64,000 bases of DNA, from positions 128,001 to 192,000 of the forward strand of contig BTVY01000003.1 in the NCBI GenBank assembly GCA_045863335.1, given 5' to 3'. The DNA is from Candidatus Hydrogenedentota bacterium. Its GTDB lineage: Bacteria; Hydrogenedentota; Hydrogenedentia; Hydrogenedentales; SLHB01. Shown here in pieces: positions 662 through 54,094 of the stretch (position 1 is the first letter of the stretch; the number at the start of each line of letters is the position of its first letter). Under the pieces are notes generated by a model, which was not told the origin of the DNA, did no database searches, and saw only the letters and a program-made list of their open reading frames with translations. A program made the position numbers and the translations under genes.

Positions 662-1525
662 TCATTCGTCTTCGCTGCCACCGATCTTGAGATGCGCCAC
701 GACGGGAAAATGGTCGCTCGGGTAGCGCCCGTCGTAATTGTACGTCACCGTTTCACACCGATCCGCAACGATGCCGCCGCGGGTCATGATCCAGTCGATG
801 CGCCGGTCGGAATCGACTTCCGGCGCCTTGAAGGCGCCCCACGTGACCGCCGGTCCAACACGTTCCGCTGCCGTGTCCCATGCGTCAGCGAGTCCGCCGT
901 CGATCAGAATCGAATACGGGATGCTGTTTGCAGCGATGGAATTGAAGTCGCCTGTTAGAACCAAGGGAACATCGTCCGGCAATGTCTCGATAAAATCGAG
1001 CACCACCTTCGACCCGCCTTGCCGCGCCGGTTCGCTGCGATGATCGAGGTGGGTGTTGATCAAATAGAAGGCCTGACCGCTGGCGTGGTGGTGGAACCGC
1101 GCCCAAGTCGCCATGCGGTTGCACGCCGAGTCCCAGGAGGAACTGCCAGGCGCCTTGGGCGTTTCCGAAAGCCAGAAGTTGCCGGATTCGATTGGACTGA
1201 TTAAGTCGGCCCGATACAGTACGGCCATCCGCTCGCCGCTGCCGTCCGCTTCGCGTGCCACGCCGAACCAGCGAAAGTGGGGGAGTTGCTCCACCAGATA
1301 ATCCGCCTGGAAGTCGAGGCATTCCTGCGTGCCGATGACGATCGGGTCTTGTTCGCGGATCATGTCGACGACAATTTCTTTGCGATTTTCCCAGGAATTG
1401 TCGCCGTCGTTCGCAGAACCAAACCGGATGTTGAACGACATGACGCGGAGATCCACCTCTTCTGCAAGGGACTGTGCACTTGCGGTGGCAAGCAGACCCA
1501 GCACAACAAGAATTCGAAGGAACAT
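662..1525 (-). CDS. Secreted endonuclease/exonuclease/phosphatase (EEP) family protein
   Basis: Signal peptide; VMSFNIR, GTQE, NTHLDH, LTGDFN, RIDWI and PSDHFPV motifs. Confidence 0.9.
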   Translation of the reverse strand: MFLRILVVLGLLATASAQSLAEEVDLRVMSFNIRFGSANDGDNSWENRKEIVVDMIREQDPIVIGTQECLDFQADYLVEQLPHFRWFGVAREADGSGERMAVLYRADLISPIESGNFWLSETPKAPGSSSWDSACNRMATWARFHHHASGQAFYLINTHLDHRSEPARQGGSKVVLDFIETLPDDVPLVLTGDFNSIAANSIPYSILIDGGLADAWDTAAERVGPAVTWGAFKAPEVDSDRRIDWIMTRGGIVADRCETVTYNYDGRYPSDHFPVVAHLKIGGSEDE

Positions 1526-2495: not shown

Positions 2496-3205
2496 TCTTC
2501 GTGGCGGATACGGCCCCTCCAGCCTTCCGGAAGGCCATAGGCATGCACAATGCGCACATCCGGCGAACGGGATATTCCGCCAGGATTCAACCCCGGCTCC
2601 CCTTCCGGGACCGGCACTCCCAACTCCTCATAGTAGTCTACCCAAGGTCCGAAAGTCTCTCCGGTCTTCGGGTCGCGAAAGGTCATGGGTTCCACGGCAA
2701 AAACAGGCTCCCCTTCGTTTGCCAGCCGGAAGGCTTCGTACACGAGTTCCGAGCAGTAGAAAGTCGAGTCCTCCATGACATACACCGAGTCGTATGGCAA
2801 TCCCATGAAGCGGCGCGCTGTGTCGAGCGCGTCCGGTATGAGCGCAGCGTATGGTTCGTCCAAGCGGCCAACCAGGACTTTGGGGTGGCCTTGGGCGTCG
2901 TGGCTTCGGTCCAGGAATGTGGACAAGGGTGTCTCGACGACTCCCGCGCTGACCGCTTCCAGGATCAGGGGTTCGGTACCATCCACTTTGGAGACGATTC
3001 CGACGTGCGAAAGGTGCGCCCCATCGATGCCGCGCGTGACGGTTTCAATGGCATCGCAGAGGGGACCGCAGTCGATATCCTGAAACAAGAGATCGCCCGG
3101 TTGCAGCGCGAAGTCCGCGTCATGCGAACGATTCGATTGACACCCCGACGAAACTAGCCCAATTGTCCATAGTGCTATCAGCGTTTTTGCAAGGGGTCTT
3201 CTCAT
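2492..3205 (-). CDS. YiiX/YaeF permuted papain-like amidase (C92) lipoprotein
   Basis: Lipobox-like VSSGC; LQPGDLLF, SHVGI and FYCSELV motifs; ATG at 3205 overlaps the upstream TGA (ATGA). Confidence 0.85.
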   Translation of the reverse strand: MRRPLAKTLIALWTIGLVSSGCQSNRSHDADFALQPGDLLFQDIDCGPLCDAIETVTRGIDGAHLSHVGIVSKVDGTEPLILEAVSAGVVETPLSTFLDRSHDAQGHPKVLVGRLDEPYAALIPDALDTARRFMGLPYDSVYVMEDSTFYCSELVYEAFRLANEGEPVFAVEPMTFRDPKTGETFGPWVDYYEELGVPVPEGEPGLNPGGISRSPDVRIVHAYGLPEGWRGRIRHED

Positions 3206-38536: not shown

Positions 38537-40201
38537 CTACGTCCCGCCGCCAGCCGCCATCTCCCGCATCGCCACCAACTCGTCCAACTGACGCTGCAGC
38601 AGATCATACTCCGGATTGAGTTCGATGGCTTGCCGCTGCCATTCAATTGCCTCTTCCAGATTGCCCGTCAACTGGGAAAGACTTGCAAGCACATAGTAGG
38701 GCATCCAGTCGTCGGGGGACATGGCCAGCGCGCGGTACGCAGCAGTGCGCGCCTCGTCGAATTTGCCTCCCCATAGGTAGACATGTGCGACGGTGAGCAG
38801 CGCGCGACCATGTTCGACCGTATCGATCTCGCTTTCCACACGCGTCTTCACGCGGTCGATGGTTTCACCGTTCCAAGTGGCTGCGGGAGCGGCAATGCCG
38901 GTGCGAATGAAGTGTTCCACAATCGACAGCGACAGTTGCCGGTTGCCTTCGATGGTTGGATGAACGTGATCGAGAAACCAGTCATTGCCCGGAATGCCGT
39001 GTTCGCTGAGGGTGCCTATCATCGAATCGAAGTCTATGGCCCCGGCGGCTTCTTTGGAAACTACCTCGTCAATCGCCGCCAGCAGCGGTCCAGTTGCCCG
39101 CAGCGGGCACACGTCGTCGTCACGAGCCCTCTCGAACGACCGGTGCGCGTTCTCGTATTCACCCAGTTCCCAGAAGATACGCCCACGGAGAAAGTGGGCT
39201 TCGGCGTATCCGTCGTCGATAGCCAGGCAATCGTCCAGGGCAATTAACGCATCGGGTAGCCTGCCTTCGTCAATGAGCATCCGCGCGCGATTCAGGTCGC
39301 GCCGGAATTGCGCGTACGCGTCTTCCGATAGTCCGTCGCTCGATTCACTCTTGAAGGGCGAGCAGTCACGCAGGTTTGACGGGGGTGTGACGAAGAGGAT
39401 AGGGGCGTCTGCGTCGCGGGCCAACAGGACCAGTCGTCTCAGATTGTGTTTGAACTGTTCGCGGACCAGGTTCGCGTACGCGTCGTCGCGGTGGTACGCG
39501 CTGGGACCGATTGAATTGTCCAGTATCGTATCGACTTCCGCTGGAAGGACAACTTCAGATGAGGCGGATCGGAACGGGGTGACCCATCGCTGTATGACCG
39601 TGTACACGCGCGAGCGCGACACGAGCGTTCCGATGCGCCGTTCCAATGGATGAGTATTGAGCACACCTTCGAAGGTGCGTCGCTCCAGGAATTCATTGTG
39701 ACCCGTATAGACGATGAACAGATCCGGTTCGTATTGGCATAACTCTTCCATAACCCGGGCGAGCCGGTAACTGGCATAGCTGATGCCGCCGCAGTTGACC
39801 ACCTCCCAGTGCCGGGAGGGATCGACCTCCGGCAGGTACGCGCGCAACCATCCGGAAAAGGACGTCGCGTCGTCGTAGGGATGTCCGAACGTGGTTGACC
39901 CGCCCAAGGTGAAGATCCGGTAGCCGTTCGCCGGTTTCGTCGACCGAAACGATTGCGTGTTGAAGTACTTGCGCTTATTTTCGGCGGTAACCTTGACCGA
40001 GTTTCCGTCCGAATCGACGCCATCGGCGAAGAGGGGTAGATAGGAGGCGAAGCCAATGTACGGGTCCTCGTGCCGGATCATCGGCGTCACCCCGGAAAGT
40101 GCCAGAAGGGCCTCCGCACCCGCAAAAAGGCACGCTGTGATCAGGACTGGCGCCGCATAGCCCGACAGGCGGCGCAACCAGGACTTTGAACCCTCTGCCA
40201 C
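38537..40201 (-). CDS. Membrane-anchored SGNH-like + TPR protein
   Basis: RIFTLGGSTT, VNCGGISY, YTGHNEF and FLDHVHP motifs; TPR-like repeats. Confidence 0.8.
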   Translation of the reverse strand: MAEGSKSWLRRLSGYAAPVLITACLFAGAEALLALSGVTPMIRHEDPYIGFASYLPLFADGVDSDGNSVKVTAENKRKYFNTQSFRSTKPANGYRIFTLGGSTTFGHPYDDATSFSGWLRAYLPEVDPSRHWEVVNCGGISYASYRLARVMEELCQYEPDLFIVYTGHNEFLERRTFEGVLNTHPLERRIGTLVSRSRVYTVIQRWVTPFRSASSEVVLPAEVDTILDNSIGPSAYHRDDAYANLVREQFKHNLRRLVLLARDADAPILFVTPPSNLRDCSPFKSESSDGLSEDAYAQFRRDLNRARMLIDEGRLPDALIALDDCLAIDDGYAEAHFLRGRIFWELGEYENAHRSFERARDDDVCPLRATGPLLAAIDEVVSKEAAGAIDFDSMIGTLSEHGIPGNDWFLDHVHPTIEGNRQLSLSIVEHFIRTGIAAPAATWNGETIDRVKTRVESEIDTVEHGRALLTVAHVYLWGGKFDEARTAAYRALAMSPDDWMPYYVLASLSQLTGNLEEAIEWQRQAIELNPEYDLLQRQLDELVAMREMAAGGGT

Positions 40202-41440: not shown

Positions 41441-44200
41441 TTACTTCTTCTTTTTCTTGCCGCCGGACTTCTTGCCCTTCTTCTCTTCCTTACGCGGCGT
41501 TTCGATGGCGGCTTGTGCCGCGGCGAAGCGCGCGATGGGTACGCGGAAGGGGCTGCAGCTCACGTAGTTCAAGCCGACGCGGTGGCAGAACTTCACCGAG
41601 CTGGCCTCGCCGCCGTGCTCGCCGCAGATACCGACTTTCAGGGCCGGGCGCGCCGAACGGCCGCGTTCGACGCCCATGGCGACCAACTGGCCGATACCTT
41701 CCTGGTCCAGCGCCTGGAAAGGATCCTGCGGCAATATCCCCTGCTCGATGTAGTGCGGCAGGAAGCCGCCCACGTCGTCGCGGGAGTAGCCGAAGCCCAT
41801 CTGCGTCAGGTCGTTCGTGCCAAAGCTGAAGAACTCGGCGTCCGCGGCGATCTTATCCGCAACCAAGCAAGCACGCGGGATTTCGATCATCGTGCCGACC
41901 ATGTAGTTCAGCTTGAGCTTGAATTCCTTTTCGACCTGTGCCGCGACGTTGCGGACGATGGCGGCCTGATTCTTGAACTCGTTCTCGTGACCCACCAGCG
42001 GGATCATGATTTCCGGAAGCACCTTGACCTTCTTCTTGGTCAATTCTGCGGCCGCTTCCAGGATGGCCCGCGCCTGCATTTCCGTGATCTCCGGATAAGC
42101 GACGCCCAGACGGCACCCGCGGTGACCGAGCATCGGGTTCAGCTCGTGCAACTGGTGGATGCGTTCCTTAATCTTGCTTGCCGGTACGTTGATCTGCTTC
42201 GACAACTCGTCGACCTGCTTGTCCGTCAACGTGACGAACTCATGCAGCGGCGGGTCCAGCAAGCGAATGGTCACCGGTTTGCCGGCCATGACCTTGAGGA
42301 TGCCGATGAAGTCCTTCTTCTGGTAAGGAAGGAGCTTCATGACGGCCTTGCGGCGCACGTCTTCGTTCTCCGCCAGAATCATCTCGCGCATGTGCACGAT
42401 GCGTTCCGGCTCGAAGAACATGTGCTCCGTGCGGGCGAGACCGATGCCTTCGGCGCCGAACTGGATGGCCTGCTCGGCGTCTTCGGGGCGTTCGGCGTTG
42501 GTGCGAACGTTGATCTGCCGCACCTGGTCCGCCCACGTCATCAACTTCTTGTACCACGGGTTCCGTTCAGGCTGTGCAGGAAGGACGCCAACCTGGCCAA
42601 CGTACACCTTACCGGCCGAACCGTTCAAGCTGATCCAGTCGCCTTCCTTCAACACCGTGCCGTTGGCGGAAACCGTCTTCTCTTTGTAGTTAATCGCCAG
42701 GGTGCCGCAACCCACGATGCAGCATTTGCCCCAACCGCGCGCGACGAGCGCCGCGTGGCTGGTCATGCCGCCCTTCGCCGTGAGAATCGCCTGGGCCACG
42801 TGCATTCCGTGCACGTCTTCCGGCGAGGTCTCGTTGCGGACCAGCACGACCTTTTTACCCTGCTTCGACCAGGCTTCCGCCGTGTCGGCGCTGAGCGCGA
42901 TCTGACCCACGCCACCGCCGGGACCGGCCGGAAGACCGCTCGCGAGAACTTGCGCCTTCTTCTCGGCGGCCGGGTCCAGCATGGGGTGCAGCAGTTCGTC
43001 CAACTGCTCCGGCTTCACGCGCATGATGGCTTTGGTCTTGTCGATGAGCTTGCTCTCGGCCATCTCGACGGCCATGCGAATCGCGGCCGTACCCGTGCGT
43101 TTACCCGTACGGGTCTGGAGCATCCAAAGGACACCATCTTCGATGGTGAATTCGATGTCCTGCATGTCCTTGTAATGGCTTTCCAACTTCAGGCGGATCT
43201 TGTCGAGCTGCTTGTACGCCTTCGGATTCACTTCTTCCAGCGACTTGTGGCCCTTGGACTCGGCGCGCTTGGTGGCCTTGTTCAGGGGGGACGGTGTGCG
43301 CGTACCGGCCACGACGTCTTCACCCTGCGCATTGACCAGCCATTCGCCGTAGAACTGGTTCTCACCGGTGGCCGGGTCGCGCGTGAACGCCACGCCGGTG
43401 GCCGACGTTTCGCCCATGTTGCCGAAGACCATCGCCTGCACGTTCACCGCGGTGCCCCAGTCGTGGGGGATGCCTTCGATGCGGCGGTAGGAGATGGCGC
43501 GCTTACCGTTCCAGGATTGGAACACGGCCTTGATGCCGCCCCAGAGCTGGGCGTTCGCATCGTCGGGGAATTCCTTGCCCAGCGTCTTCTTGACGATCGC
43601 CTTGAACTCTTCACAGAGTTCTTTCAAATCTTCCGCGGTCAACTCGGGATCCAGCGTCACGCCGCGCTTCTTTTTCAACGCGTCCATGGCATGTTCGTGT
43701 TGCTCGCGCACCGAGTGGCCGTCTTTCGTTTCCACGCCCGCGGCTTTCTCCATCACCACGTCCGCGTACATCGTGATGAGGCGGCGGTAAGCGTCGTAGG
43801 CGAAACGCTCATCGCCGCTTTTGGCGATGAGGCCCGGGAGGGTCTTCGACGACAGGCCGATGTTCAGCACCGTGTCCATCATGCCCGGCATGGACATGCG
43901 CGCGCCGGAGCGAACCGACATGAGCAGGGGGTTCTTCGGGTCGTCGAACTTCTTGCCCATGACCTTTTCGGTGCGGGCGAGCGCCTTTTCGACTTCCTTG
44001 GTGAGTTCCTTGGGAAGCCGGCCCTTGTTGTTGTAATACTCGGTGCACATTTCGGTCGTGATGGTGAACCCGGCGGGCACCGGGATTCCCAGGCTCGACA
44101 TCTCGGCAAGGTTGGCGCCTTTGCCGCCGAGCAGTTCCTTCATGCCGGCGCGCCCCTCGGCCTTGCCGCCACCAAAGAAATAAACGTTCTTTTTAGCCAT
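41441..44200 (-). CDS. ppdK: Pyruvate, phosphate dikinase
   Basis: LLGGKGANLAEM, SVRSGA, GGMTSHAA, NPMLGHRGCRL, FSFGTNDLTQ and GICGEHGG motifs; AAGGAG RBS. Confidence 0.98.
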   Translation of the reverse strand: MAKKNVYFFGGGKAEGRAGMKELLGGKGANLAEMSSLGIPVPAGFTITTEMCTEYYNNKGRLPKELTKEVEKALARTEKVMGKKFDDPKNPLLMSVRSGARMSMPGMMDTVLNIGLSSKTLPGLIAKSGDERFAYDAYRRLITMYADVVMEKAAGVETKDGHSVREQHEHAMDALKKKRGVTLDPELTAEDLKELCEEFKAIVKKTLGKEFPDDANAQLWGGIKAVFQSWNGKRAISYRRIEGIPHDWGTAVNVQAMVFGNMGETSATGVAFTRDPATGENQFYGEWLVNAQGEDVVAGTRTPSPLNKATKRAESKGHKSLEEVNPKAYKQLDKIRLKLESHYKDMQDIEFTIEDGVLWMLQTRTGKRTGTAAIRMAVEMAESKLIDKTKAIMRVKPEQLDELLHPMLDPAAEKKAQVLASGLPAGPGGGVGQIALSADTAEAWSKQGKKVVLVRNETSPEDVHGMHVAQAILTAKGGMTSHAALVARGWGKCCIVGCGTLAINYKEKTVSANGTVLKEGDWISLNGSAGKVYVGQVGVLPAQPERNPWYKKLMTWADQVRQINVRTNAERPEDAEQAIQFGAEGIGLARTEHMFFEPERIVHMREMILAENEDVRRKAVMKLLPYQKKDFIGILKVMAGKPVTIRLLDPPLHEFVTLTDKQVDELSKQINVPASKIKERIHQLHELNPMLGHRGCRLGVAYPEITEMQARAILEAAAELTKKKVKVLPEIMIPLVGHENEFKNQAAIVRNVAAQVEKEFKLKLNYMVGTMIEIPRACLVADKIAADAEFFSFGTNDLTQMGFGYSRDDVGGFLPHYIEQGILPQDPFQALDQEGIGQLVAMGVERGRSARPALKVGICGEHGGEASSVKFCHRVGLNYVSCSPFRVPIARFAAAQAAIETPRKEEKKGKKSGGKKKKK

Positions 44201-44316
44201 TCGAATCTTCTCCTTCCGTGCTGTTCCCTTAAGCACGATACCCCGTTGAGCGCGGGGAGAAACGGTTACGGTGTGCAGTTCTCGTTCAACTGAACCCCCA
44301 TGCACAAAATCGCCAG

Positions 44317-44346
44317 ATTATAGCGGACGGCGTCGTGGGGTTGCAA
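44317..44346 (-). promoter_or_regulatory. Putative sigma70 promoter of ppdK
   Basis: Minus strand TTGCAA-N18-TATAAT. Confidence 0.6.
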
Positions 44347-44901
44347 AGTTTACGCGCGGATGGTGTTGGACAGCCCGTGGGGCTGGCGCGATTTCGCATT
44401 AATCCGGTATGCGGTGCGGACTGGGAAGACGGGCTGATTGCGTCACGGTACACTTTTGCCCACACTCCGCGCAGTATCGGGGCGCATCAAGCCGTGGCTC
44501 CCGTCCAAACGCCCGGAAATTGTGTATTATAGGAGTAGCCTACATACATATAATCAGAGACGGCCGCATCTGCGATTGCTCTCGTTTAATCCGGTGCGTT
44601 CGGTCGCGTCCCCTGGATGTTCGCCGGCAGGCATGCCGCCGGTCGATTGAAGGCGTTGACTTGGTCGCGTGCAGTCCGTTCTAATAGGACCGACAAATGA
44701 CAAAAAACGTCGCTGGGGCAACGTTTACGTCAGTTCAATTTACAGGAATCGACGATAGCGCGGCCTGCGGATGCAACGTAAGTCCTTGGTTGGCAATCCT
44801 CAGGCCTGGATGAGGGGGAGCATGGCACAAGTCCTGCTCATGCAAGTCTGCGCGAACGCGGTTGGGCTGGAAATACGAAGTCGGTATACGGGAGTCGCGC
44901 T

Positions 44902-45390
44902 ATGAAACGTACACACGGTTTCACGATGGTCGAGCTGATGATCGTCATGGAGATCATCATGCTCCTGACCGCGCTCGCCTACCCTCAACTTCGGCGGGCG
45001 CTGATCAACGCCCGCGAAGGCAACGCCGTTGGTTCCATGAAGATGATCGTCACCGCCCAGGCTGGGTTCAAGGAAGCGGGATTCGTCGACCTCGACGGAA
45101 ACGGCGAAGGCGACTATGGAACCCTTCCACAACTATCCGACCCTGACGGCGCGGGCGCGACCCAGGGGTTCATCGACACCGTGCTCGCTACGGGCGTGAA
45201 GTCGGGATACATTTTCACCATCGCCGTGACACCCGGCACCGCCACCAACCCGCCCTCGTACACCGTCACCGGAATCCCCACCATACCCGGCAGCACGGCA
45301 TACAAGATGTACTACGCCGACGATACCGGGATCATCCGTTTCACCGGAGACGGAACACCCGTGGGACCCACATCGCCGGTACTGGACTAG
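44902..45390 (+). CDS. Type IV pilin / pseudopilin-like protein with prepilin N-terminal cleavage motif
   Basis: MKRTHG/FTMVELMIV; KSGYIF and YYADDTGIIR C-terminal motifs; GGGAG RBS. Confidence 0.85.
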   Translation: MKRTHGFTMVELMIVMEIIMLLTALAYPQLRRALINAREGNAVGSMKMIVTAQAGFKEAGFVDLDGNGEGDYGTLPQLSDPDGAGATQGFIDTVLATGVKSGYIFTIAVTPGTATNPPSYTVTGIPTIPGSTAYKMYYADDTGIIRFTGDGTPVGPTSPVLD

Positions 45391-45657
45391 CCGATCAAGG
45401 TCGTGCTTCCGATTCCGCGCCACACCACAGCGCAGCCATGCATCGCGTACGTAGCGCCTGGTAGGTCAGACTGAGTCTGCCGGTTCCGGCATCCCGATCA
45501 TGTCGGCCACAACGGCGTTCGTGACTTGATAAATCCATTTCCGATCTGAGATCTCAGATCTGGAAATGGCGACGTCAAGGCGTGGCCTGGTTCGAGGGCG
45601 AACGCCCGTGCGTTGAGAGATTTCTCCGTTCGGATCCACTGCTAACGAAAGAAAGCC

Positions 45658-45736
45658 TTGGCCACAAAGGAACGCATAGAACTCAATTAAGAAAGTACGA
45701 GATCTTTTTGTGTTCTATGCGTTCTTTTGTGGCCAA
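45658..45736. repeat. Long inverted repeat with roughly 9-bp periodic arms
   Basis: ttggccacaaaggaacgcatagaactcaa (45658-45686) versus the reverse complement at 45708-45736, two mismatches. Confidence 0.85.
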
Positions 45737-45811
45737 TCCATGCATTACGCGAAACGAACGGGATCGCAGAGAGACTTGCACCCAAGAGGCTGGCCGCGCG
45801 CACGGTGCGAC

Positions 45812-45841
45812 TTGCCACGCCTTCCCGCTCCGCGCTACACT
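45812..45841 (+). promoter_or_regulatory. Putative sigma70 promoter of tRNA-Arg
   Basis: TTGCCA-N18-TACACT. Confidence 0.5.
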
Positions 45842-45926
45842 ACCGCCCATACCGCATCAAACCTGACCAAGCGGGGCTTCGCAATGAAGAAGACATCGAG
45901 CTTCCCGTGTGGTTAGCGACCTCTTC

Positions 45927-46000
45927 GCGCCTGTAGCTCAGTTGGATAGAGCAACGGCCTTCTAAGCCGTAGGTCGAGCGTTCGAATCGCTCCAGGCGCG
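45927..46000 (+). tRNA. tRNA-Arg (anticodon TCT), CCA not encoded
   Basis: Acceptor stem gcgcctg/caggcgc; D-arm tagctcagttggatagagc; anticodon arm acggc-cttctaa-gccgt; T-loop gttcgaatc. Confidence 0.97.
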
Positions 46001-46266
46001 CTTCTTTTTACAGCCAGGCCGTCCGCGGCTTCCCGCCGGACAACGGTCGCAACCCCTTGTCCAATGAATTCCGCTGTGCACATGATATTATGTCGTGACA
46101 GGATTCGGTACGCTGGTGGACACCGGGAGTGGGGCAGCGTGTGAGCCTAACGCGTGGGCAACGGAGTAGGGCGGCATCGCTTGTTGCAGTTGCGGAGACG
46201 TTCTTGCGACTACTCAGCGGGTGCCGGCACGCACCTCGCGCGCGAAGAGCGTGAAAGGAGACGGGT

Positions 46267-49080
46267 TTGGGTATTCTTGGACTGCGAATAGGCCGCACAA
46301 ACACACACGCAGTAGTCATGAAAGATGCCAACGGACCCGTTCCGCTTGGTCACCCGAATGATCCAATTCCCACAATGGCCGTCATTGAAGACGGTCACTG
46401 GATCATTGGTGAATCCGCCCTAAACCTATCAGCGTACCGTCCCGGGTGTATCGCGCGCCTGCCCGCCAGCCTAAGCGACCCGATATGCGCGGGTAACTCG
46501 ATGTACGATTCGAGTACGCTATTGACAGGTATCGCAAGTCTCGCGAAGCAGGCCGCCGAAAGAGAGTTGGAAACGCGAATCGAGTCGTGCGCACTTTCCA
46601 TTCCCACATGCTATACCGCCGCCGATTTGACTGTCCTTCGCGACGCGTGTATCGCGGCAGGATTCAAAAGGGTGGAGTTCGTCGTCGATCCCATAGCGGC
46701 AGTAGCGGATGCGTATCCTGATCCCGAAGCTGGGCCCGAGTGTATCCTTGTAGTGCGAATGGGCGGTCGAAGCTTCGAGGCTGCCGTGATTAGCTCGCGC
46801 GACGGAGAATACTCGGTCGATGCCTTCGAAAGCGATTCCTTTCTTGGCGGCGAGGACTTCGATCGCGCCATTGTAAAGTGGTTCATTGAGGGTGCCGAAC
46901 ATGACAATCCGAAGCTGGCGGAAACCATTCGAAATGACCGCACGGTGTATGATCATTTGACTTGGGCGGCAGTGAGCGCAAAGCATACCCTCTCATCGCG
47001 CGTCAGCGCACACCTGATCCTACCGATCGGAAACGAGTCACTTCACCGCGAGCTTAGCCGGGACGTTTTTAACGATTTGACGCGCCCACTCGTGGACCGA
47101 GCAGGAGCAATGGTAGCGTCCTTGTTGCTGCAAACCAGATGCACAGACGATATAGCGCCGAATTTGATCCTGACGGGCGGCAGTGCGGCAATTCCTGCCC
47201 TCGTTGACAGAATACAACTAGGCGCGAATACCAGGCTTCAGCCGATCCAGAATTCCGCCAATGCCTCTGCCAGAGGGGCGGCCCGTTTTGCGAATCGGAT
47301 GTTACATCCCGCCACGGGAGTTGACGCAGCGGCCAACAGACGAGTACTCTACGCGCCTAGAATAGATTTGAGCAGCGATCGTATGCGCCTCTTGCTCGAG
47401 GAGATTACGTTGTCGGCCGCCGCACCGCCGCCACCCTCTCCTCTGCATCTGCCGAAGGCGCTTCATGCCGAGTGTCAAAGACTCGCAGCGTTTCGCGATT
47501 CGTTGAGCGCCCGCCTCGGTTCAGCCCGGTCGGAGTACGCCGCAAAGATTGAGCAGTCCCGAGAGGACCTGGAATGTCTGGCCTGCGACATCTCATCTCT
47601 CACGGACGCGCAAATGACCGCGGAACGCGGACGTGAGTTGTACCTTCGACTTCAGCGCGTTCTCGCCGGGCTTCAGTCCATTTCAACACATCTAGACGAG
47701 GGCGGACCTTGCGAGCCTACCAAGCCTGCCGTTCCGCAACACGTGGAGGAACCTCTCTCCCACAGCCTGAGCCTGGACGAGAACGTTCAGTTCAGCGTCT
47801 ACCGGCCGAGGACCGTAGAGCCATCAAAATGGTATCCGATGCTGGCATTTGCTCATTTGGACGCACTGTCGGAGGATGCGGCGCCTGACGAGGCAGATCC
47901 TATCGAGGAAGTCCATCGTCAGGCGGAATCGATTCTCGGTGAGAAACTCACGGAATACCGGGAGAGCACCCACGATAGCCGAGCTACCGTTCCCCATGAA
48001 GGAGAGATTACTTTTCTTCCGGAGGTTACCGGCATCCAGTTCAATCCTCCGCGCCGCGTATTTCTTTGGGTGGAAAACGTTCACCGTGAAGAATTTCGAC
48101 TGCGGGCCGACGCTTCCCTGGAGGGCCAGACCGCGCGTGGATCGCTCAGCGTCTTCCTGGGTAGCATTCTTCTGGCTGAAGTAACACTCGCGATACGCGT
48201 CCAAACCGGGGTCAGCGTGAGTGCAGTCGAGCCGGCGCACCTCAGTACCGCGCGGCCCTATCGGAAGGTATTCGCGTCCTACTCGCATCAGGATACCGCG
48301 ATTGTCCAAGAGTTCGAACGGTATGCCCGGGCCTTGGGTGACACCTATCTTCGGGATTGGATCGATCTTCGTGCAGGAGAGATTTGGAACGACCGCTTGC
48401 TCGATATGATTCGGGAGGCCGATGTCTTCCAGCTCTTCTGGTCTTCGAATGCGATGCGTTCGGAATATGTCGCGCGGGAATACCAGTACGCCTTGGCCCT
48501 GAATCGGCCTCACTTCGTTCGCCCCACCTATTGGGAGCAACCTCTTCCCGAAAACCCATCGGCCGGGTTACCGCCAGAAGAATTAAAGCGGCTCCATTTT
48601 CAGTGTCTGACCGTCAGTGACGGCGCCTCACATGGTTTGGCCTCTCAAACGCGGAGTGAGTCTCGCGAGGAAATCACGTCACGTTCGGTCTCTTCAGCCA
48701 GCCCCAGTGTTCCACCTTCCCCGGCCCCGCGTCCGCAGAGCAAAGATACAGGCATGACTGATTTTAAAGATGCCTTTGGAGCGCCCACATCGGCACCTAG
48801 CGCCGCCTATGATCTGGACTTTGATAGCGCTGCTGAGACGTTTGACGATTCCGTTGGCCAGTTCCAATTGCCGGACGAATTTCCTATGCCGGCACCAACA
48901 GACGGTTCCCGCGGTCAGGCCCCCTTCCCAGATGAAATGCCCATGGCGGCACCAGGGTTCGCGCCGCCACCAGCGGCAAGGTCGAGACGCGGTAGACCCA
49001 TCGAATTGTGGGGCATAGCAGGGGTGACGATTCTGGTCCTTCTGCTCATCGGGATTATGGCGTACATCGCCATCCGATGA
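46267..49080 (+). CDS. Hsp70-like (degenerate ATPase) - coiled coil - TIR domain - C-terminal TM protein
   Basis: AAGGAG RBS and TTG start; Hsp70 motifs LGGEDFD, LTGGS..IP and ARGAA; TIR motifs KVFASYSHQD, DLRAGEIW, ADVFQLFWS and SEYVARE; terminal TM helix. Confidence 0.85.
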   Translation: MGILGLRIGRTNTHAVVMKDANGPVPLGHPNDPIPTMAVIEDGHWIIGESALNLSAYRPGCIARLPASLSDPICAGNSMYDSSTLLTGIASLAKQAAERELETRIESCALSIPTCYTAADLTVLRDACIAAGFKRVEFVVDPIAAVADAYPDPEAGPECILVVRMGGRSFEAAVISSRDGEYSVDAFESDSFLGGEDFDRAIVKWFIEGAEHDNPKLAETIRNDRTVYDHLTWAAVSAKHTLSSRVSAHLILPIGNESLHRELSRDVFNDLTRPLVDRAGAMVASLLLQTRCTDDIAPNLILTGGSAAIPALVDRIQLGANTRLQPIQNSANASARGAARFANRMLHPATGVDAAANRRVLYAPRIDLSSDRMRLLLEEITLSAAAPPPPSPLHLPKALHAECQRLAAFRDSLSARLGSARSEYAAKIEQSREDLECLACDISSLTDAQMTAERGRELYLRLQRVLAGLQSISTHLDEGGPCEPTKPAVPQHVEEPLSHSLSLDENVQFSVYRPRTVEPSKWYPMLAFAHLDALSEDAAPDEADPIEEVHRQAESILGEKLTEYRESTHDSRATVPHEGEITFLPEVTGIQFNPPRRVFLWVENVHREEFRLRADASLEGQTARGSLSVFLGSILLAEVTLAIRVQTGVSVSAVEPAHLSTARPYRKVFASYSHQDTAIVQEFERYARALGDTYLRDWIDLRAGEIWNDRLLDMIREADVFQLFWSSNAMRSEYVAREYQYALALNRPHFVRPTYWEQPLPENPSAGLPPEELKRLHFQCLTVSDGASHGLASQTRSESREEITSRSVSSASPSVPPSPAPRPQSKDTGMTDFKDAFGAPTSAPSAAYDLDFDSAAETFDDSVGQFQLPDEFPMPAPTDGSRGQAPFPDEMPMAAPGFAPPPAARSRRGRPIELWGIAGVTILVLLLIGIMAYIAIR

Positions 49081-49148
49081 GTTCGACCTCGGTACGCGAG
49101 AGCGCCCTATCAAAACGCGCCCTCAACAATTATGGGCGTGTCATCTTC

Positions 49149-49190
49149 GAATGGTGGCGACCGTCTCTTGATGTCGGGCCGCCGCCATTC
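49149..49190. terminator. Hairpin between the convergent TIR gene and small ORF
   Basis: gaatggtggcg...cgccgccattc stem, without a clear U-tract. Confidence 0.4.
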
Positions 49191-49212
49191 AAGGTGAATC
49201 CTTAAGGGACCA

Positions 49213-49314
49213 TTACGCGAATTCGAAGATGGCGAAGAGTGCGGCGAGGAACTCTTCGATGTCGAGTCCAAAGATTGCCGTGACCAGTCCGAGGATGACC
49301 AAGAGGATTTCCAT
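49213..49314 (-). CDS. 33-aa small hydrophobic protein (absent from the ORF track)
   Basis: AAGGAG RBS 8 nt before ATG; MEILLVILGLVTAIFGLDIEEFLAALFAIFEFA*; host-like C-ending codons. Confidence 0.7.
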   Translation of the reverse strand: MEILLVILGLVTAIFGLDIEEFLAALFAIFEFA

Positions 49315-49606
49315 TTTCTGTACTCCTTGACGTGTTCGTTTTCGCGGTTGCGTCACCGCGATTCGGGCCAGTTCTCAAGTCAGTAGACGTTTGCGGCGCC
49401 CGGCTTATTCATGATACGCCTGTTGTGGAGTCGGGAAAAGCTTTGCTGAACGAATCCAAAAGCGCATGCAAGGCATGCGTTACATTGTTCTGGGCGGGCG
49501 GAAACGCAAAGGGATCGTTCATGTTTTGTAAGTATTTTTAGAACAGTCTATTACCGCAAATCTGGCGACTAGCAGCCCGTGGCAAGGAACCTGCGTATTC
49601 GAATTA

Positions 49607-50082
49607 CGCCCGGCATGGAAACCGGGCGCTACAGGACTTCTGGCACGGGCTGTTAGGGTTCCCGCAAATTGGATGCATCTTTTCCGAGTCATTGTGGATA
49701 GATAAGGGGAGGGGGAGATTGTACCCATTGATCTGAACGTATAGGGGGAACTCGATGACAACCCACGCATGCGAAACCTGCCGAATGCGCACCCACTACG
49801 AAGAAAACCCGCGATCCTGGCGGGGACGGCTCTGGTTGTGGCACACCAAGTGGTGTCCCGGTTGGAAGGCGTACGTGAAATCACGCAAACAAGAGATTTC
49901 GAAGCAGGAAGCGGGGGAGCCAGAGGCCTCCTGAGACGATTGGGGGTTCAGTTCAGCGATTGGTTGTTGTTGCGCCGTAGGCAACTTCAAACCGACGCTT
50001 CGACGTTGCGCTGTAGCGTCCGGCTTCCACGCCGGACGTCTTCGACTCCGTCACTCGCCCGGGGTGGAACCCGGGCGCTACA
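49607..50082. repeat. Three copies of a TGTAGCG-type REP hairpin (49607-49633, 50012-50038, 50056-50082)
   Basis: cgcccggcatggaaaccgggcgctaca; tgtagcgtccggcttccacgccggacg; cgcccggggtggaacccgggcgctaca. Confidence 0.8.
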
Positions 50083-50295
50083 AAGAGGTGCCGCGAGTTA
50101 GCCGCATTCCCTCAATCCTCGAGGTCGGCGACCGTACCGACACGATGGCATGAGGAAGAAGACCCCCTCCCCAGCCTTCACCGAAGACGGGTAGGGCGCA
50201 AGATCGCGCAGGTGGGGGATGTTCTCCGGATCGTTTTGCTATAGTGCCTTGGCCCACGCGGCAGGCGTGGCAAAACGAATCAAGGAGGTTTCCCC

Positions 50296-51468
50296 GTGCG
50301 TCAAGCCCTGATCGGGTGTCTACTGACCGCCGTCGTTGTGATCCTCGCGCTTGCCGGCGGCGCAGCACTGTATGTATATGCGCCGTTCGGTTTGTCTGAA
50401 CTCTTCGGGTTTGATGTATACGACGAGGGTCCGCCGGAAGGCGTCCACGTGGGGGAAGGGCTGTTCGCGAAGCAGTCCGTTGAACTCGACGGGCGCATCA
50501 ACTGGGTGACCGACATCCTCGACGCGGACCTGGATGGCCAACCTGGCGCCGATCTGGGCATGGCAAGCCCCGAGGGGATTCTTTTTCGCGACAGCGCCTC
50601 TAAGCAACTGCGGTACGCGCCGATTGTTGAGTATGTGGACAACATCCGCTTCGTGCACGTTCCTTCTCTCGGCCAATACGCTGTGTACAACAACCAGTCC
50701 TGGTATGAAGAAGACGCTCTGGCGCTGTTCGATTTGAACGGGAAACAACTCTGGACTTTCGAGAATCCCAACGGACCCGCCGCGATGGTGCCCGGCGACC
50801 TGGACGGAGATGGCGAGCCGGAGTTCTGCGTGATCTATTCGGACGACGAGTCCGAGGAATCCGAAACCCTACTCGTGCTGAACGCATCCGGCAACGAGTT
50901 GTGGCGCAAGGCCATACCGTATACGTGGGATTTTGAAGTGGCGGATATCACCGGAGACGGGCTAGATGACATCTGTGTCTTCGATGAGACCGACGAAGTG
51001 TTTATCGAGCGACGCGAGGGTGAACGCCAACGGGTAACCACTGATCCGGTTATGGAGGCGTCCGTTTTCACGACAGTCGCGTGGCCGGCCAATGAATCTG
51101 GCGCCGAGAACATCTGTTTTGAAGTGTTCGAACGGCTGTCCTTCATCGACTCCGCCGGGAATCCACTGCTGGAACTCGATGCGCCCGGTCTGGACTATCC
51201 GGATGACATCCGCGCGGAGGCGTTTACCGTCGAACCCGGAGGCCCAGCCCATCTCGCGGTGATCGCGAATGCGTTTTACCCCGAGTACACGCAGTTCTAC
51301 GTCTACGACCCGGACGGGGCGCTCATGTACTACGAGGTGTTGGGCTCGTATACGTCCGCCTTGACGCCGATCTATACGGAGTCCGGCGAATGCCGCATCC
51401 TGGTTGGCGGCGACGACAGTTTCTACGATTACACGCTCGCCGCCACTCCTCCCGAGGGTGAAGGTTAG
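50296..51468 (+). CDS. Membrane-anchored acidic beta-propeller protein with FG-GAP-like Ca-binding loops
   Basis: AAGGAGG RBS; N-terminal TM; DLDGQPG, DLDGDGEPE and DITGDGLDDI motifs. Confidence 0.75.
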   Translation: MRQALIGCLLTAVVVILALAGGAALYVYAPFGLSELFGFDVYDEGPPEGVHVGEGLFAKQSVELDGRINWVTDILDADLDGQPGADLGMASPEGILFRDSASKQLRYAPIVEYVDNIRFVHVPSLGQYAVYNNQSWYEEDALALFDLNGKQLWTFENPNGPAAMVPGDLDGDGEPEFCVIYSDDESEESETLLVLNASGNELWRKAIPYTWDFEVADITGDGLDDICVFDETDEVFIERREGERQRVTTDPVMEASVFTTVAWPANESGAENICFEVFERLSFIDSAGNPLLELDAPGLDYPDDIRAEAFTVEPGGPAHLAVIANAFYPEYTQFYVYDPDGALMYYEVLGSYTSALTPIYTESGECRILVGGDDSFYDYTLAATPPEGEG

Positions 51469-51475
51469 TCCATTC

Positions 51476-54094
51476 CTACTCCGCGGCCTCTATCGATTCG
51501 TAAAACGCCTGGCGGTGCCGCTCGCCCGCTTCCGCAAAGTGGGTGATGCCTTCCCGCTCGACGATGGCCGTGAACCGTGCCAGGGTACCGTCAGCCTTGG
51601 CCCGCGCCGGCATGCGTTTGCACTTCAAGTACATGATCGGTAGGCGCGCCACCTCGACCCGTTCGCGAACTTCCGGCGAATCGGCAACGATCTCCGCCTG
51701 ATCGAAGATGGCTTCCGCCTCGCGCACGAAATCATCGCTGAAGAGCGTGTCGTCCGGCTGCAGTCCCAGGTGGATGTGCGTGTTCGGAGTGAGTTGATCG
51801 TGGAGCAGATCAAAATACTGCCGGACGTATTGGCCGCTGCGTCCGTAGTAGCCGTACATGAAGTCGTCGATGGTGGCGTTGACGTCGCAGTTGTCGGGGT
51901 CCCAGAGCAGCTTGGAAATCACGTAGGCCCGCAATTCCGCGAACTCCCCGCCCCGGCTCTGGTAGGCCGCCTGTTCCATGATGCCAATCGCATTGTGATC
52001 CCGGAAGAACTGGATGTTTGGTTTCAACACGCGGAAGTTGGGGTAGGGCATGATGTAGTGGCTGAAGTTGACCACATAGTCCCAGATGTAAATGTGCGGC
52101 GCGATCGCGGCCCAGCCTTCCATGTCTTCCACAAAGGACGCGTTCTCCGGACACTCCGTGAAGGGGTGTGCGAAGCAGCATTCGATGCTGCAAAAGCGGA
52201 CGACCACGTTGTGTCGCGGTTTTAGTGTGGCGCAGGGCTTCCGGGTGTAGCTGTAGGCCAGCGTGCCGATGAACTTATCGGGGAACTCCGCTTCCACCGC
52301 TTCAGCAACCTGGTTCACGAACCAGATGATGGGCCCCGACTGGCTCATCTCGCGATCCACGATGGCCTGACACTGATCGCATTCGCAGGGGTTCGACCAG
52401 TCGTTCTGCGACACGGAGTAGATCAGATAGTGTGGATTCTCGCGCATGACCTTGCGAACGCGTTCGGTGATGATGCGCAGCACGTCCGGGTTGGTCAGGC
52501 AGAGCTGGGCATGGTCATGGACCCGTTCGCCGTCGAGGAGGCTGTAATACTCGGGATGATCCGCGAAGAACTCGTCGGGCGGCATGAGCGGGTAAAACGT
52601 ATGTACCGCCCAATAGCCCTCGACGCCGCCGGGCTGTTCGCGGTAGCTCATGGCGCCGTTGATCCGGTTCCGCGCGGCCCAGATGGGCTCGAAGGCCTCG
52701 AAATAGAAATCGTTGCGCACGCGAATCCCCGGCGCTTCGGAGTGGTTAAGACGCACGAAGCGGTAGTCGGTTTTCTTCGGCGCGACCGTCACGCGGGGGG
52801 TGTAGAACCGCAGCCCCAGTTCCCGCTCGAGGAAGCTCATCACACCGTACATGGTTCCGCGTGCGCGGCCTCCCCAGATTGCCAGGTCCGCGCCGACATT
52901 TCTGTAGCGGAAGGACTCGTCATTGAGATCCGGCTCGGCCGTCTCGGGTAAGGCGTCGAGCAAGGGCTTTCCGTAGCCAAGCAGGATCGCCGGGCCGGAC
53001 TCGGGCCGTTGGTCGACGATCGGAAAGTCCGCGCCGCTGACTTCGGCAAGCCAGTGTTTGAGTTCTTCCGCGGCCCAACGCTCCGAATCCGATGCTTCCT
53101 CCGGCAGCACGATGGAGTAGTCGGTCTTACCATCCTCAAAAAGTGCGTATTCGACGCGGATGCCGGCGCTGAAGGGTTGCTCCATCACGATGCGTTGTCC
53201 TCCGGCGAAGGTGGCTTCCGCCCGCAGGGTATACTCGTCAAACTGCGTTGTATCCACCGGAAGCGCCACGTCGGGTTCCTTCGACCATTCTCCCTGCCAG
53301 ATCGTGGCGCCGGGATCCGATACGGGCGATACAGTCAACGACACGTTCTGCAAGAACCCGTCCAATAGTTTTTTCGTTTGGATGTACTGAAGGTGGGGTA
53401 CGCCGTTGGTATCTGTGACGACCCGGAAGGGTTGAAGGTTGTCACGCACGAGTTTGTCGTCGAAGGGGATCAGCCTGCAGGCAAACTGCCAGAGGTTTCC
53501 ACGTTCCTCGACTTTCAGCAAGAGTTGATTGCGGCCCGGTTGGAGGACCACCGGCACGATGTCACCATCGATCCGCAAACCGCGTGCGCCAGGGTGATCC
53601 CACACGCGCTCACCGTTCATCCAGACCTGCACGCCGTCGTTGGTGCCAAGGGCGAGCGCGCAGGCCAGTGTTTCCGTGCTTTCGATTTCACAGTAGGCAT
53701 AAGCGATAACGGCATTCTCTTTGGAGATGGCTTCGTCGAGATCGACATAATCCGCCGGACTCTCGTGTAGAACCCAAGGCAGGGTCGCGCCATCGAGAGA
53801 GATGGTTTGCGCAACGTCGACCTTACCGGTGGTTTCACCTCCGGACCCGGCGAGGTAGTCCTGATAGAAGGCGTCGATCCGGATCGTGTCGATTGTTTCG
53901 TCGGCATCCAACGCCAGAGGAAATGGCCCGCACAGCGACCACGTGCGAAGAAACTCGCCGGACGGTTGATCGGTGTATACCGGCGCATCTGCAAACGTGA
54001 GACTGGCCGTGCAACACAAAAGCGCCGCGGGAATAGAAAACCGAAAGAGCTGAATTGGCGAATTGCCTTGCGTGCGAAGTACGTCGTGATTCAT
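51476..54094 (-). CDS. DUF4838 domain protein (putative secreted glycan-active enzyme) with N-terminal beta-sandwich
   Basis: AAEELKHWL, RGTMYGV, HPEYYSL, QLCLTNP, QND...CEC..C, GTLAY and YIWDY motifs; start uncertain (54094, 54112 or 54187). Confidence 0.8.
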   Translation of the reverse strand: MNHDVLRTQGNSPIQLFRFSIPAALLCCTASLTFADAPVYTDQPSGEFLRTWSLCGPFPLALDADETIDTIRIDAFYQDYLAGSGGETTGKVDVAQTISLDGATLPWVLHESPADYVDLDEAISKENAVIAYAYCEIESTETLACALALGTNDGVQVWMNGERVWDHPGARGLRIDGDIVPVVLQPGRNQLLLKVEERGNLWQFACRLIPFDDKLVRDNLQPFRVVTDTNGVPHLQYIQTKKLLDGFLQNVSLTVSPVSDPGATIWQGEWSKEPDVALPVDTTQFDEYTLRAEATFAGGQRIVMEQPFSAGIRVEYALFEDGKTDYSIVLPEEASDSERWAAEELKHWLAEVSGADFPIVDQRPESGPAILLGYGKPLLDALPETAEPDLNDESFRYRNVGADLAIWGGRARGTMYGVMSFLERELGLRFYTPRVTVAPKKTDYRFVRLNHSEAPGIRVRNDFYFEAFEPIWAARNRINGAMSYREQPGGVEGYWAVHTFYPLMPPDEFFADHPEYYSLLDGERVHDHAQLCLTNPDVLRIITERVRKVMRENPHYLIYSVSQNDWSNPCECDQCQAIVDREMSQSGPIIWFVNQVAEAVEAEFPDKFIGTLAYSYTRKPCATLKPRHNVVVRFCSIECCFAHPFTECPENASFVEDMEGWAAIAPHIYIWDYVVNFSHYIMPYPNFRVLKPNIQFFRDHNAIGIMEQAAYQSRGGEFAELRAYVISKLLWDPDNCDVNATIDDFMYGYYGRSGQYVRQYFDLLHDQLTPNTHIHLGLQPDDTLFSDDFVREAEAIFDQAEIVADSPEVRERVEVARLPIMYLKCKRMPARAKADGTLARFTAIVEREGITHFAEAGERHRQAFYESIEAAE

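Follow-up and report, generated by a model that had tools for sequence, protein, structure and literature searches.

What role a degenerate Hsp70 ATPase domain plays at the head of a membrane-anchored TIR protein is the question raised by a 937-codon gene of a Candidatus Hydrogenedentota bacterium (assembly GCA_045863335.1). The gene lies within a 64,000-nucleotide stretch of contig BTVY01000003.1 (positions 128,001 to 192,000, forward strand), which we refer to as the window and whose positions are used throughout. A sequence-only reading of the window had proposed that the product of this gene is a new immune or conflict receptor. Our analyses showed that the protein belongs to a very large modular family whose constant beta-sandwich and TIR module follows one of several N-terminal domains, the Hsp70 nucleotide-binding domain (NBD) being among them, so a lone new invention was not borne out. 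On balance, we favour, with caution, the view that the gene encodes a single-chain, inner-membrane-tethered TIR sensor-effector of conflict or stress signalling that would use the dead Hsp70 NBD as its input.

Domain architecture of the fusion protein

The reading frame is open throughout, with TTG as the start and the nearest upstream stop four codons away. The gene and the domains of its product (P0001) are as follows.

46267..49080 (+): whole gene, 937 codons plus stop, encoding an Hsp70-like NBD, helices, a beta-sandwich, a TIR domain, a linker and a transmembrane (TM) tail anchor
46267..47313 (+): Hsp70/actin-fold NBD, residues 1-349, catalytically degenerate (Pfam, DnaK structures, AlphaFold)
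47314..47751 (+): disordered residues 350-391 and three long helices, residues 392-478, replacing the Hsp70 substrate-binding domain (AlphaFold)
47752..48210 (+): conserved beta-sandwich, residues 496-648, UPA-like by fold, with a predicted homodimer interface (module model, VIA-align, co-folding)
48256..48612 (+): TIR domain, residues 664-782 (Pfam TIR_2; VIA-align Z 10.8 to 8.7)
48478..48480 (+): Glu738 codon; catalytic-type Glu in S..[WY]...E (SEYVARE), unchanged in all 150 sequences aligned
48613..49005 (+): disordered linker, residues 783-913, with P, S, A and D commonest (pLDDT <50; composition)
49006..49074 (+): predicted C-terminal TM helix, residues 914-936, followed by one residue and thus placed as a tail anchor (AlphaFold helix; hydropathy window 911-929)

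The Pfam HSP70 profile matched residues 80-342 (E 3e-32) at its positions 108-372 of 599 alone, so the protein has no substrate-binding domain. Solved DnaK NBDs aligned to residues 3-317 (E 2e-23). TIR_2 covered residues 668-757 (E 6e-12; 46.5 bits against a cut-off of 28), and residues 496-660 had no Pfam match. In the full-length AlphaFold model (predicted local distance difference test, pLDDT, 72.9; predicted template modelling score, pTM, 0.45), the NBD (residues 1-349) was well folded, with block pLDDT mostly 80-97. The order of parts claimed in the sequence-only reading, that is, no substrate-binding domain, a beta-rich domain, a TIR domain with its Glu, a linker and one terminal TM helix, was thereby recovered by Pfam and AlphaFold, and the protein is predicted to be tail-anchored in the membrane. 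Residues 627-645 were flagged as a second TM helix by a crude hydropathy scan and were rejected, as they form a buried beta hairpin of the sandwich in the model.

The public record of the product is 565 aa long, starts at M373 (47383) and is annotated with TIR_2 only, which leaves out the NBD. The full 937-aa call is present in another assembly. Since annotation from M373 hides the fusion, architecture censuses based on called proteins may undercount fusions of this kind.

A beta-sandwich and TIR module shared across phyla

The C-terminal half of the protein has a very large number of relatives. An exhaustive search of 1.84 billion representative proteins reached 16540 representatives at E<=1e-3, 5101 at <=1e-10 and 1560 at <=1e-30, and the best 150 of the list were examined. 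Their top-scoring stretches lay in query residues ~365-935, except for P0026, which aligned over 90-791. The shared unit is a module of ~285 aa (P0001 numbering is module numbering plus 495), and its aligned segment, residues 496-795, was 52-69% identical to 149 of the best 150 representatives. Invariant positions included H530, P545, P594, F610, Y672, D676, G691, FQL.WS (721-726), S732, E738, W756, P759 and P761. Glu738, Ser732, Trp725 and FQL.WS were the same in all 150 aligned sequences, and P0001 keeps every invariant column of the family, whose motifs read LDENVQF..YRP, FNPP, ESVHREEF, FASYS, FQLFWS, E.(E/Q)YAL and RP.YWE. The Glu picked out earlier as putatively catalytic (SEYVARE) is Glu738, and its conservation bears that choice out. 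From the retained catalytic-type Glu, NAD+ cleavage by the TIR domain would be predicted.

When species genomes were scanned with two motifs of the module, 267 relatives were confirmed, of which 80 loci, 49-63% identical, were kept. According to record titles, they came from at least six phyla: Planctomycetota, Acidobacteriota (Thermoanaerobaculia, Pyrinomonadaceae, Blastocatellia and Vicinamibacterales), Myxococcota/Deltaproteobacteria, Verrucomicrobiota, Chloroflexota and Actinomycetota. Three metagenome-assembled genomes carried two loci each, so paralogues occur. By a crude hydropathy scan, a TM helix followed the module in 120/149 representatives and in 59 of the 75 genome loci at which the module gene was called; a single TM helix ending within 25 residues of the C-terminus was found in 75/149 and 34/75, respectively.

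The AlphaFold model of the module, built from a 53-row alignment, reached a pLDDT of 88.5 and a pTM of 0.84. In a fold comparison against 48161 chains, VIA-align resolved this model into two domains, residues 1-150 and 170-292. The second part is a TIR domain, with MyD88 (Z 10.8), Hydra TRR-2 (10.2), SpbK (10.2) and RPP1 (9.3) as the closest matches, followed by SARM1 (8.9), ThsB (8.9) and Cat1 (8.8). The best matches of the first part were UPA domains, namely the NLRP1 FIIND (7crv_B, Z 10.3, root-mean-square deviation 2.9 over 120 residues), ankyrin-B (6m3q_E, 10.2), UNC5b (3g5b_A, 9.8), a second NLRP1 structure (6x6a_G, 9.2) and CARD8 (7jkq_B, 8.7); as unrelated sandwiches reached up to 9.0, 'UPA-like' is a lead and not a statement of membership. 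Foldseek with the whole module returned mixed beta-sandwich matches of low TM-score. In profile-to-PDB comparison, the S..F/W...E motif was aligned with its counterparts in Cat1 and in a TIR-TPR chain, although these matches were weak (E 0.84 and 0.23). Clusters of relatives in the ESM Atlas are named 'hypothetical protein' or carry generic TIR/SEFIR-domain names.

Exchangeable N-terminal domains

An Hsp70 NBD preceded the module in 29/149 of the best representatives, a list that is skewed to Hsp70 because the query carries an NBD. Pfam domains in 53 of these representatives included HSP70 (21), Pkinase (12) and DUF4062 (4), along with FHA, WD40, vWA, NPHP3_N, GAF-SpoIIE, TonB_C, type II secretion system (T2SS) E/F and DO-GTPase domains; P0035 combines Hsp70, vWA, the module and DO-GTPase. 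The loci found with the module alone form an unbiased set. The module gene was called in 75 of the 80, and 70 of the 75 had at least 60 residues before the module, distributed as follows.

N-terminal Pkinase: 24/70 loci
N-terminal HSP70: 6/70 loci
N-terminal STAND-type NTPase (NB-ARC, AAA_16/NPHP3_N or nSTAND1, some with TIR_2 or DUF4062): 5/70 loci
N-terminal TIR_2 only: 2/70 loci
N-terminal DUF4062 only: 2/70 loci
N-terminus without a Pfam domain: 31/70 loci

Recurrence of the fusion of NBD and module in both the biased list and the module-only loci rules out a one-off event.

Two distant module relatives (29% identity), with other N-termini and no TM tail, were also seen in the same order as the window genome. 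One (L016 1984-4725, +) follows segments that by eye are DUF4062-like, coiled-coil and zinc-ribbon, and the adjoining gene (L016 4745-5878, +) appears, again by eye, to encode DUF4062 and a P-loop NTPase. The other (L015 647-2146, +) follows what looks like a T2SS-E N-terminal domain.

A conserved Arg pair in the degenerate NBD

The deviating motifs described in the sequence-only reading were all confirmed. Phosphate-1 reads GLRIGRTNT in place of GIDLGTTNS, phosphate-2 reads VVRMGGRSFE in place of VYDLGGGTFD, and VVDPIAA stands for INEPTAA, while LGGEDFD and GGSAAIP are kept. Two codons are of particular interest.

46285..46287 (+): Arg7 codon, phosphate-1, at the place of DnaK Asp8; from alignment, invariant in a five-member clade
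46756..46758 (+): Arg164 codon, phosphate-2, at the place of Asp191 in the genome's own DnaK; from alignment, invariant in the same clade

The catalytic tetrad occupies positions 8, 70, 169 and 191 in the genome's own DnaK; in E. coli numbering we take it to be Asp8, Lys70, Glu171 and Asp194, with Arg164 at Asp194. In the fusion protein the tetrad is R / gap (no Lys) / D / R. The NCBIfam DnaK and HscA models matched far below their cut-offs (TIGR02350, 92.9 bits against 822.55), and identity of the NBD to the genome's own DnaK was 26-27%. On these residues, the NBD is predicted to be unable to hydrolyse ATP canonically, while keeping the fold and part of the adenosine-pocket motifs.

To place these changes, 30 Hsp70-module NBDs were aligned with the two canonical DnaKs of the genome (two rows lack the N-terminus). 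The full D-K-E-D tetrad was present in 11/30. Arg at both Asp positions (R/R) was found in 5/30 (P0001, P0013, P0014, P0017 and P0047), all five of which lack the Lys at position 70, and the remaining NBDs had assorted partial losses, e.g., H-K-E-H and D-K-E-H. In a tree of 32 NBDs, the five R/R members grouped together as a single clade (Shimodaira-Hasegawa-like support 0.992). The other four were only 23-31% identical to the NBD of P0001, and R7 and R164 were among 30 invariant columns, together with G5, G9, T11, G166-G167, G194-G195-D199, A235, A238, K239, S243 and G304-G305; the A..AK..LS motif (K239, S243) is thus kept in the clade. Invariance at such identity implies that the Arg pair arose once and was kept through deep divergence, which rules out neutral decay of the Hsp70 part. 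The data support the view that this part is a conserved and probably repurposed pseudo-ATPase under selection. To that extent the sequence-only reading, which had asked whether the Arg substitutions are conserved in homologues, holds: they are invariant in a monophyletic clade of five. The sensing and gating role that it attached to the substitutions would belong to the mechanism discussed below.

Judged by eye, P0013 and P0014 seem to retain part of the substrate-binding beta domain behind the NBD, where P0001 has helices. Word-index searches with the protein and with a profile of the R/R clade returned the truncated self record and ordinary Hsp70-like proteins without the Arg pair (P0158 has Arg at the second Asp position alone); these searches missed relatives found by the exhaustive search and are therefore uninformative on rarity. 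Neither of two metagenome scans, run with the R/R NBD profile and with P0017, respectively, confirmed a locus.

Predicted self-association of the module

Two copies of the module were co-folded. The score, which is a model confidence, was 0.46, against 0.01 for the best of three controls; in a benchmark, 0.46 was reached by 20/30 proteins solved as one-chain pairs and by 1/23 solved as single chains. The runs shared at least 34% of contacts, with a partner pLDDT of at least 73. The predicted interface is symmetric, falls within the beta domain (at module residues 27, 60-61 and 98-118) and includes the invariant or nearly invariant W27, N98, P99, F104, W106, E108, H111, F115 and R116, so that it coincides with the most conserved surface of the module. 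The beta domain is accordingly predicted to homodimerise.

Comparison with known systems and conflict-type neighbours

As a rule, known TIR effectors are activated by self-assembly, and in Thoeris a TIR-made signal is read by a SLOG domain. The family resembles the bacterial TIR NADase effectors and signal generators (Thoeris ThsB, SpbK, CRISPR-associated Cat1, TIR-STING and the TIR-TM effectors of cyclic-nucleotide systems) in the TIR fold (Z 8.7-10.2) and in the motif with the invariant Glu, whereas it differs from them in the beta-sandwich that always precedes the TIR domain, in the usual TM tail anchor and in having its own N-terminal switch domain.

A neighbour cluster of the family mirrors the Thoeris logic of TIR signal, SLOG domain and two-TM effector. 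At 10/75 loci (L020, L037, L040, L046, L052, L058, L069, L075, L086 and L090), directly upstream in seven of them, a protein of ~600 aa is encoded that has a SLOG-like N-terminal half and a DUF4231/SLATT C-terminal half; in the nine cluster members scanned, DUF4231 was found eight times, SLATT_3 twice and YAcAr (SLOG family) once. The window itself has no ThsA gene, and PADLOC ThsB matches there were weak, at E 1.3e-3 to 1e-2. The module proteins at the ten loci of the cluster have DUF4062, NB-ARC or unassigned N-termini, and none has Hsp70 or a kinase. Other recurrent neighbours were M48 peptidases (7/75 loci), TPR-S cyclases (6) and kinases (6), and TIR/NB-ARC fusions also occurred. One Hsp70 fusion is followed by a caspase-FGE-sulfatase gene (L067 6697-8346, +) and another by a gene for a 1393-aa WD40 protein (L019 7338-11516, +); conflict systems of multicellular bacteria employ both domain types.

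A 625-aa relative of the SLOG-like and DUF4231/SLATT proteins (profile E 8e-34 and 1e-30) is encoded in the window genome too (L114 8043-9917, +; contig C36 ~44042-45916). It is unlinked to the TIR gene; its neighbours are an AAA+RyR protein of 847 aa and a TrkA_N+RyR protein.

HSP70, in some cases reduced to the NBD, takes part in DO-GTPase conflict systems that have TIR among their shared effectors, according to the accessible part of Kaur et al. 2020 (PMC7159879). The likeness to the present protein lies in an Hsp70-type NBD, at times without the peptide-binding domain, within effector-bearing proteins; the window differs in that no SLOG, SIR2, DO-GTPase, GAP1, tubulin, GrpE, DnaJ, cyclase or CRISPR partner was found among its ORFs (open reading frames) scanned. 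As far as the available text of a preprint goes (10.64898/2026.10.19.760177), an HSP70- or HSP90-like NTPase can replace the STAND switch in tripartite conflict architectures, so this exchange is already in print. The module of beta-sandwich, TIR and TM and the double-Arg clade are not among the architectures described in the accessible parts of the HSP70 conflict papers from the Aravind group, whose supplementary tables may list such proteins. Likewise, neither the module nor the Arg-pair NBD was described in the literature found, on which the supplementary tables of PMC7159879 and PMC8195603 may bear.

The animal UPA proteins (NLRP1, CARD8, UNC5, ankyrin and PIDD) share with the family a sandwich directly before an oligomerising signalling domain and, here as a prediction, its self-pairing. 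In those proteins ZU5 and UPA are followed by CARD or Death, whereas here helices rather than ZU5 precede the sandwich and TIR follows it; no autoproteolysis motif of the UPA/FIIND kind and no sequence-level match were found, which makes this a resemblance and not membership. ZU5, UPA and FIIND are mentioned only in metazoan or general contexts in the accessible part of PMC8195603. With canonical DnaK/Hsp70, finally, the protein has in common the NBD fold, LGGEDFD, GG..IP and A..AK..LS, and it differs in its tetrad (R / no Lys / D / R) and in lacking the substrate-binding domain and lid.

Genomic context and horizontal acquisition

The gene sits behind a tRNA gene, as had been noted from the sequence, and has a good ribosome-binding site.

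45927..46001 (+): tRNA-Arg (anticodon TCT; ARAGORN, Rfam tRNA 73.6 bits), marking a slot with differing downstream cargo
46255..46260 (+): Shine-Dalgarno-like AAGGAG, 6 nt before the TTG start, read from the sequence

The flanks of this slot, which lies behind tRNA-Arg(TCT) and between a pilin-like gene and an FG-GAP gene (region compared, window 44902-50296), are syntenic in congeners, and its cargo is variable. The same tRNA follows the pilin-like gene in G105 (L115, C13) and G104 (L116, C10). G105 carries a PAS hybrid histidine kinase, a sulfatase and a BNR protein there, G104 a URO-D-like protein, and the window genome the TIR gene. Codon usage of the fusion gene is atypical along its whole length and lowest in the NBD and tail; its third-position G+C content (GC3, 0.60) and codon adaptation index (CAI, 0.56) both fall below the ranges of 16 window genes (0.69-0.83 and 0.63-0.82), in line with the earlier remark on atypical codons. 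The differing cargo and the codon usage show that the gene was horizontally acquired, at a variable slot that is not specific to defence. Neither a direct repeat of the tRNA 3' end nor an integrase-like ORF was found within 44300-51500.

In the 6.75-Mb genome, which is 99.4% complete, the gene is single-copy and there are two canonical DnaKs. An orthologue is absent from five congeners, and the matches listed for 133 genomes of the order include none; across 135 genomes of the phylum, the best non-self match to the R/R NBD profile scored 184.5 bits, against 485.7 for the self match. Four public runs, belonging to three studies, have contigs with pieces identical to the gene, and no differences are listed within it. 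In run X1, which may be the source sample, one contig spans the whole gene with zero differences, run X2 has eight identical pieces, and X4 and X5 have two 151-nt pieces each; some of the pieces cross the junction of NBD and linker.

Proposed mechanism and alternative explanations

We propose that in the constant part of the family the UPA-like beta-sandwich would pair the protein, with the TIR domain, whose catalytic-type Glu is intact, coming next, and that the flexible linker and the C-terminal TM helix would keep this module at the cytoplasmic membrane face. The variable N-terminus, which among the recognisable ones is mostly a protein kinase and otherwise a STAND NTPase or Hsp70 NBD, would serve as switch or sensor. 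The NBD may bind a ligand or hold a conformation that separates the beta-TIR units; a trigger, such as infection, a change in nucleotides or energy, or a partner protein, would then allow two-dimensional assembly of TIR domains at the membrane. The assembled TIR domains would cleave NAD+, either depleting it or producing a nucleotide signal, and the cell would arrest.

A more specific form of this mechanism seems to us rather unlikely as it stands. Here the double-Arg NBD would be a metal-independent receptor of adenine nucleotides, either a gauge of ATP, and so of energy, or a receptor of an NAD+-derived product such as ADP-ribose (ADPR) or a cyclic ADPR (cADPR) isomer. The two Arg would stand in for the Asp pair that coordinates Mg2+, with the ligand bound and never hydrolysed. 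Occupancy would be relayed through the retained interdomain-linker region to the UPA-like dimerisation domain, which would nucleate TIR assembly at the membrane. The protein would then correspond, as a single bacterial chain, to the UPA-driven assembly of death folds by animal inflammasome proteins, and the module a general output cassette of kinases, STAND NTPases and Hsp70 NBDs.

Several observations weigh against the sensor-effector proposed here, beginning with the genomic evidence. The neighbours of the gene in the window are pyruvate phosphate dikinase, a pilin-like N-methyl protein, an FG-GAP protein, DUF4838, murA, hisD, hisC, an M48 peptidase and sugar-nucleotide enzymes, all of them housekeeping or envelope genes; no defence gene was found among the 20 window ORFs scanned, and the window shows no defence island. 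PADLOC gave weak TIR matches alone (best E 8e-6). Across the family, the largest neighbour cluster is the one at 10/75 loci and no partner is universal, most of 112 immediate neighbours scanned were housekeeping or had no Pfam domain, and none was a classical restriction, CRISPR or Abi gene. The identity of the module across phyla, 50-65%, is unusually high for an immune effector and may mean a conserved cellular role. As to the Arg pair, only five R/R representatives were found, all of them singleton clusters from metagenome-type sources (one is present on 5 contigs), and in the module tree the five proteins are scattered, with the kinase fusion P0010 as the nearest module to P0001; because the R/R modules do not group, owing to domain shuffling or poor tree resolution, co-evolution of NBD and module is not established. 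On the structural side, the packing between domains was not predicted with confidence (full-length pTM 0.45), so gating is purely conjectural; one of the three co-fold runs scored 0.00, and the predicted homodimer may reflect the model's memory of solved UPA/TIR assemblies; the UPA-like label stands ~1 Z unit above generic beta-sandwiches. The literature search found enzymatic, binding or phage data for no family member.

The main rival to an immune role is a conserved non-immune one, which we regard as somewhat unlikely. The module would be a membrane-proximal signalling or adaptor unit of housekeeping or development, similar to a kinase-coupled stress or envelope pathway, its TIR domain a regulated NAD+ or nucleotide-signal enzyme or a protein-interaction domain, and the dead NBD one input. 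Such a role would fit the very high conservation of the module across phyla (50-63% in genome loci), the Ser/Thr kinase domain as its commonest partner (24/70), C-terminal fusions with GAF-SpoIIE phosphatase, TonB_C and T2SS E/F, and neighbours that are mostly housekeeping. The recurrence of the M48 peptidase also fits; however, by record titles these neighbours are mostly from one family, Pyrinomonadaceae, and represent shared synteny rather than independent associations. Further, the module is fused to NB-ARC/STAND, TIR_2 and DUF4062 and linked to SLOG-SLATT, caspase-FGE-sulfatase and TPR-S cyclase genes, which is the vocabulary of conflict systems, and its patchy spread, here as a singleton in the phylum, with foreign codons and in a variable tRNA slot, fits an accessory mobile gene.

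It is improbable, in our view, that the dead NBD acts as a guard or, as the sequence-only reading suggested, a decoy which mimics the NBD of the host DnaK, so that binding by a phage or plasmid protein, or by a co-chaperone (DnaJ, GrpE) perturbed by an invader, would release TIR assembly. A bacterial NLR-related protein senses phage via DnaJ, according to the accessible part of PMC12169576. In the present protein the NBD retains its fold and surface despite the loss of catalysis, and the two canonical DnaK genes of the genome leave the fusion copy free for another role. Nevertheless, nothing that we found argues for a protein ligand, the two Arg sit in the nucleotide cleft and off the co-chaperone surface, which would point to an altered cleft ligand, and 26-27% identity to the host's own DnaK makes for poor mimicry.

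That the fusion gene, or its NBD, is an inert remnant of horizontal transfer drifting to a pseudogene is highly improbable: the atypical codons, the NBD skipped by public annotation and the single copy without an orthologue in relatives would fit, but the 937 codons are intact behind a good ribosome-binding site, the NBD is predicted to be well folded, no invariant position of the module departs from the family consensus, the residues that look unusual are those conserved in the clade rather than random ones, and identical pieces recur in runs from three studies.

If the membrane-tethered TIR sensor-effector that we favour is correct, the gene represents a very large, unnamed and phylum-spanning family that couples a fixed output cassette to exchangeable kinase, STAND or Hsp70 inputs, and would be well suited to studies of how the assembly of bacterial TIR domains is gated. 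It would also provide a natural case of an Hsp70 NBD turned into a hydrolysis-dead sensor through a conserved Asp-to-Arg pair, and would suggest that animals are not alone in placing a UPA-like fold directly ahead of an oligomerising immune domain.

Other features of the window and genome

Scans for promoters and terminators gave matches at chance level. In Rfam, the tRNA was the sole match, with two miRNA-family matches far below their cut-offs. Two more TIR_2 frames, of 772 and 1011 aa, are present in the genome (L110, C1, match at 39212-39571; L112, C53, match at 2791-3144), neither of which came up among the relatives of the module. An inverted repeat (45658-45736), located about 190 nt before tRNA-Arg, has 29-nt arms (93% complementary) and a 21-nt loop, for which Rfam matches were at chance level. 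Downstream of the TIR gene, a 27-nt element with an internal palindrome occurs in two intergenic copies (49607-49633 and 50056-50082, 89% identity) and looks like a repetitive extragenic palindromic (REP) element. A 1.2-kb stretch of lower G+C content without a long ORF contains a strongly hydrophobic ORF of 33 aa (P0162, 49213-49314, -), which is preceded at 8 nt by AAGGAG. This ORF runs convergently to the TIR gene, ends 133 nt past the stop of that gene and may encode a small membrane peptide.

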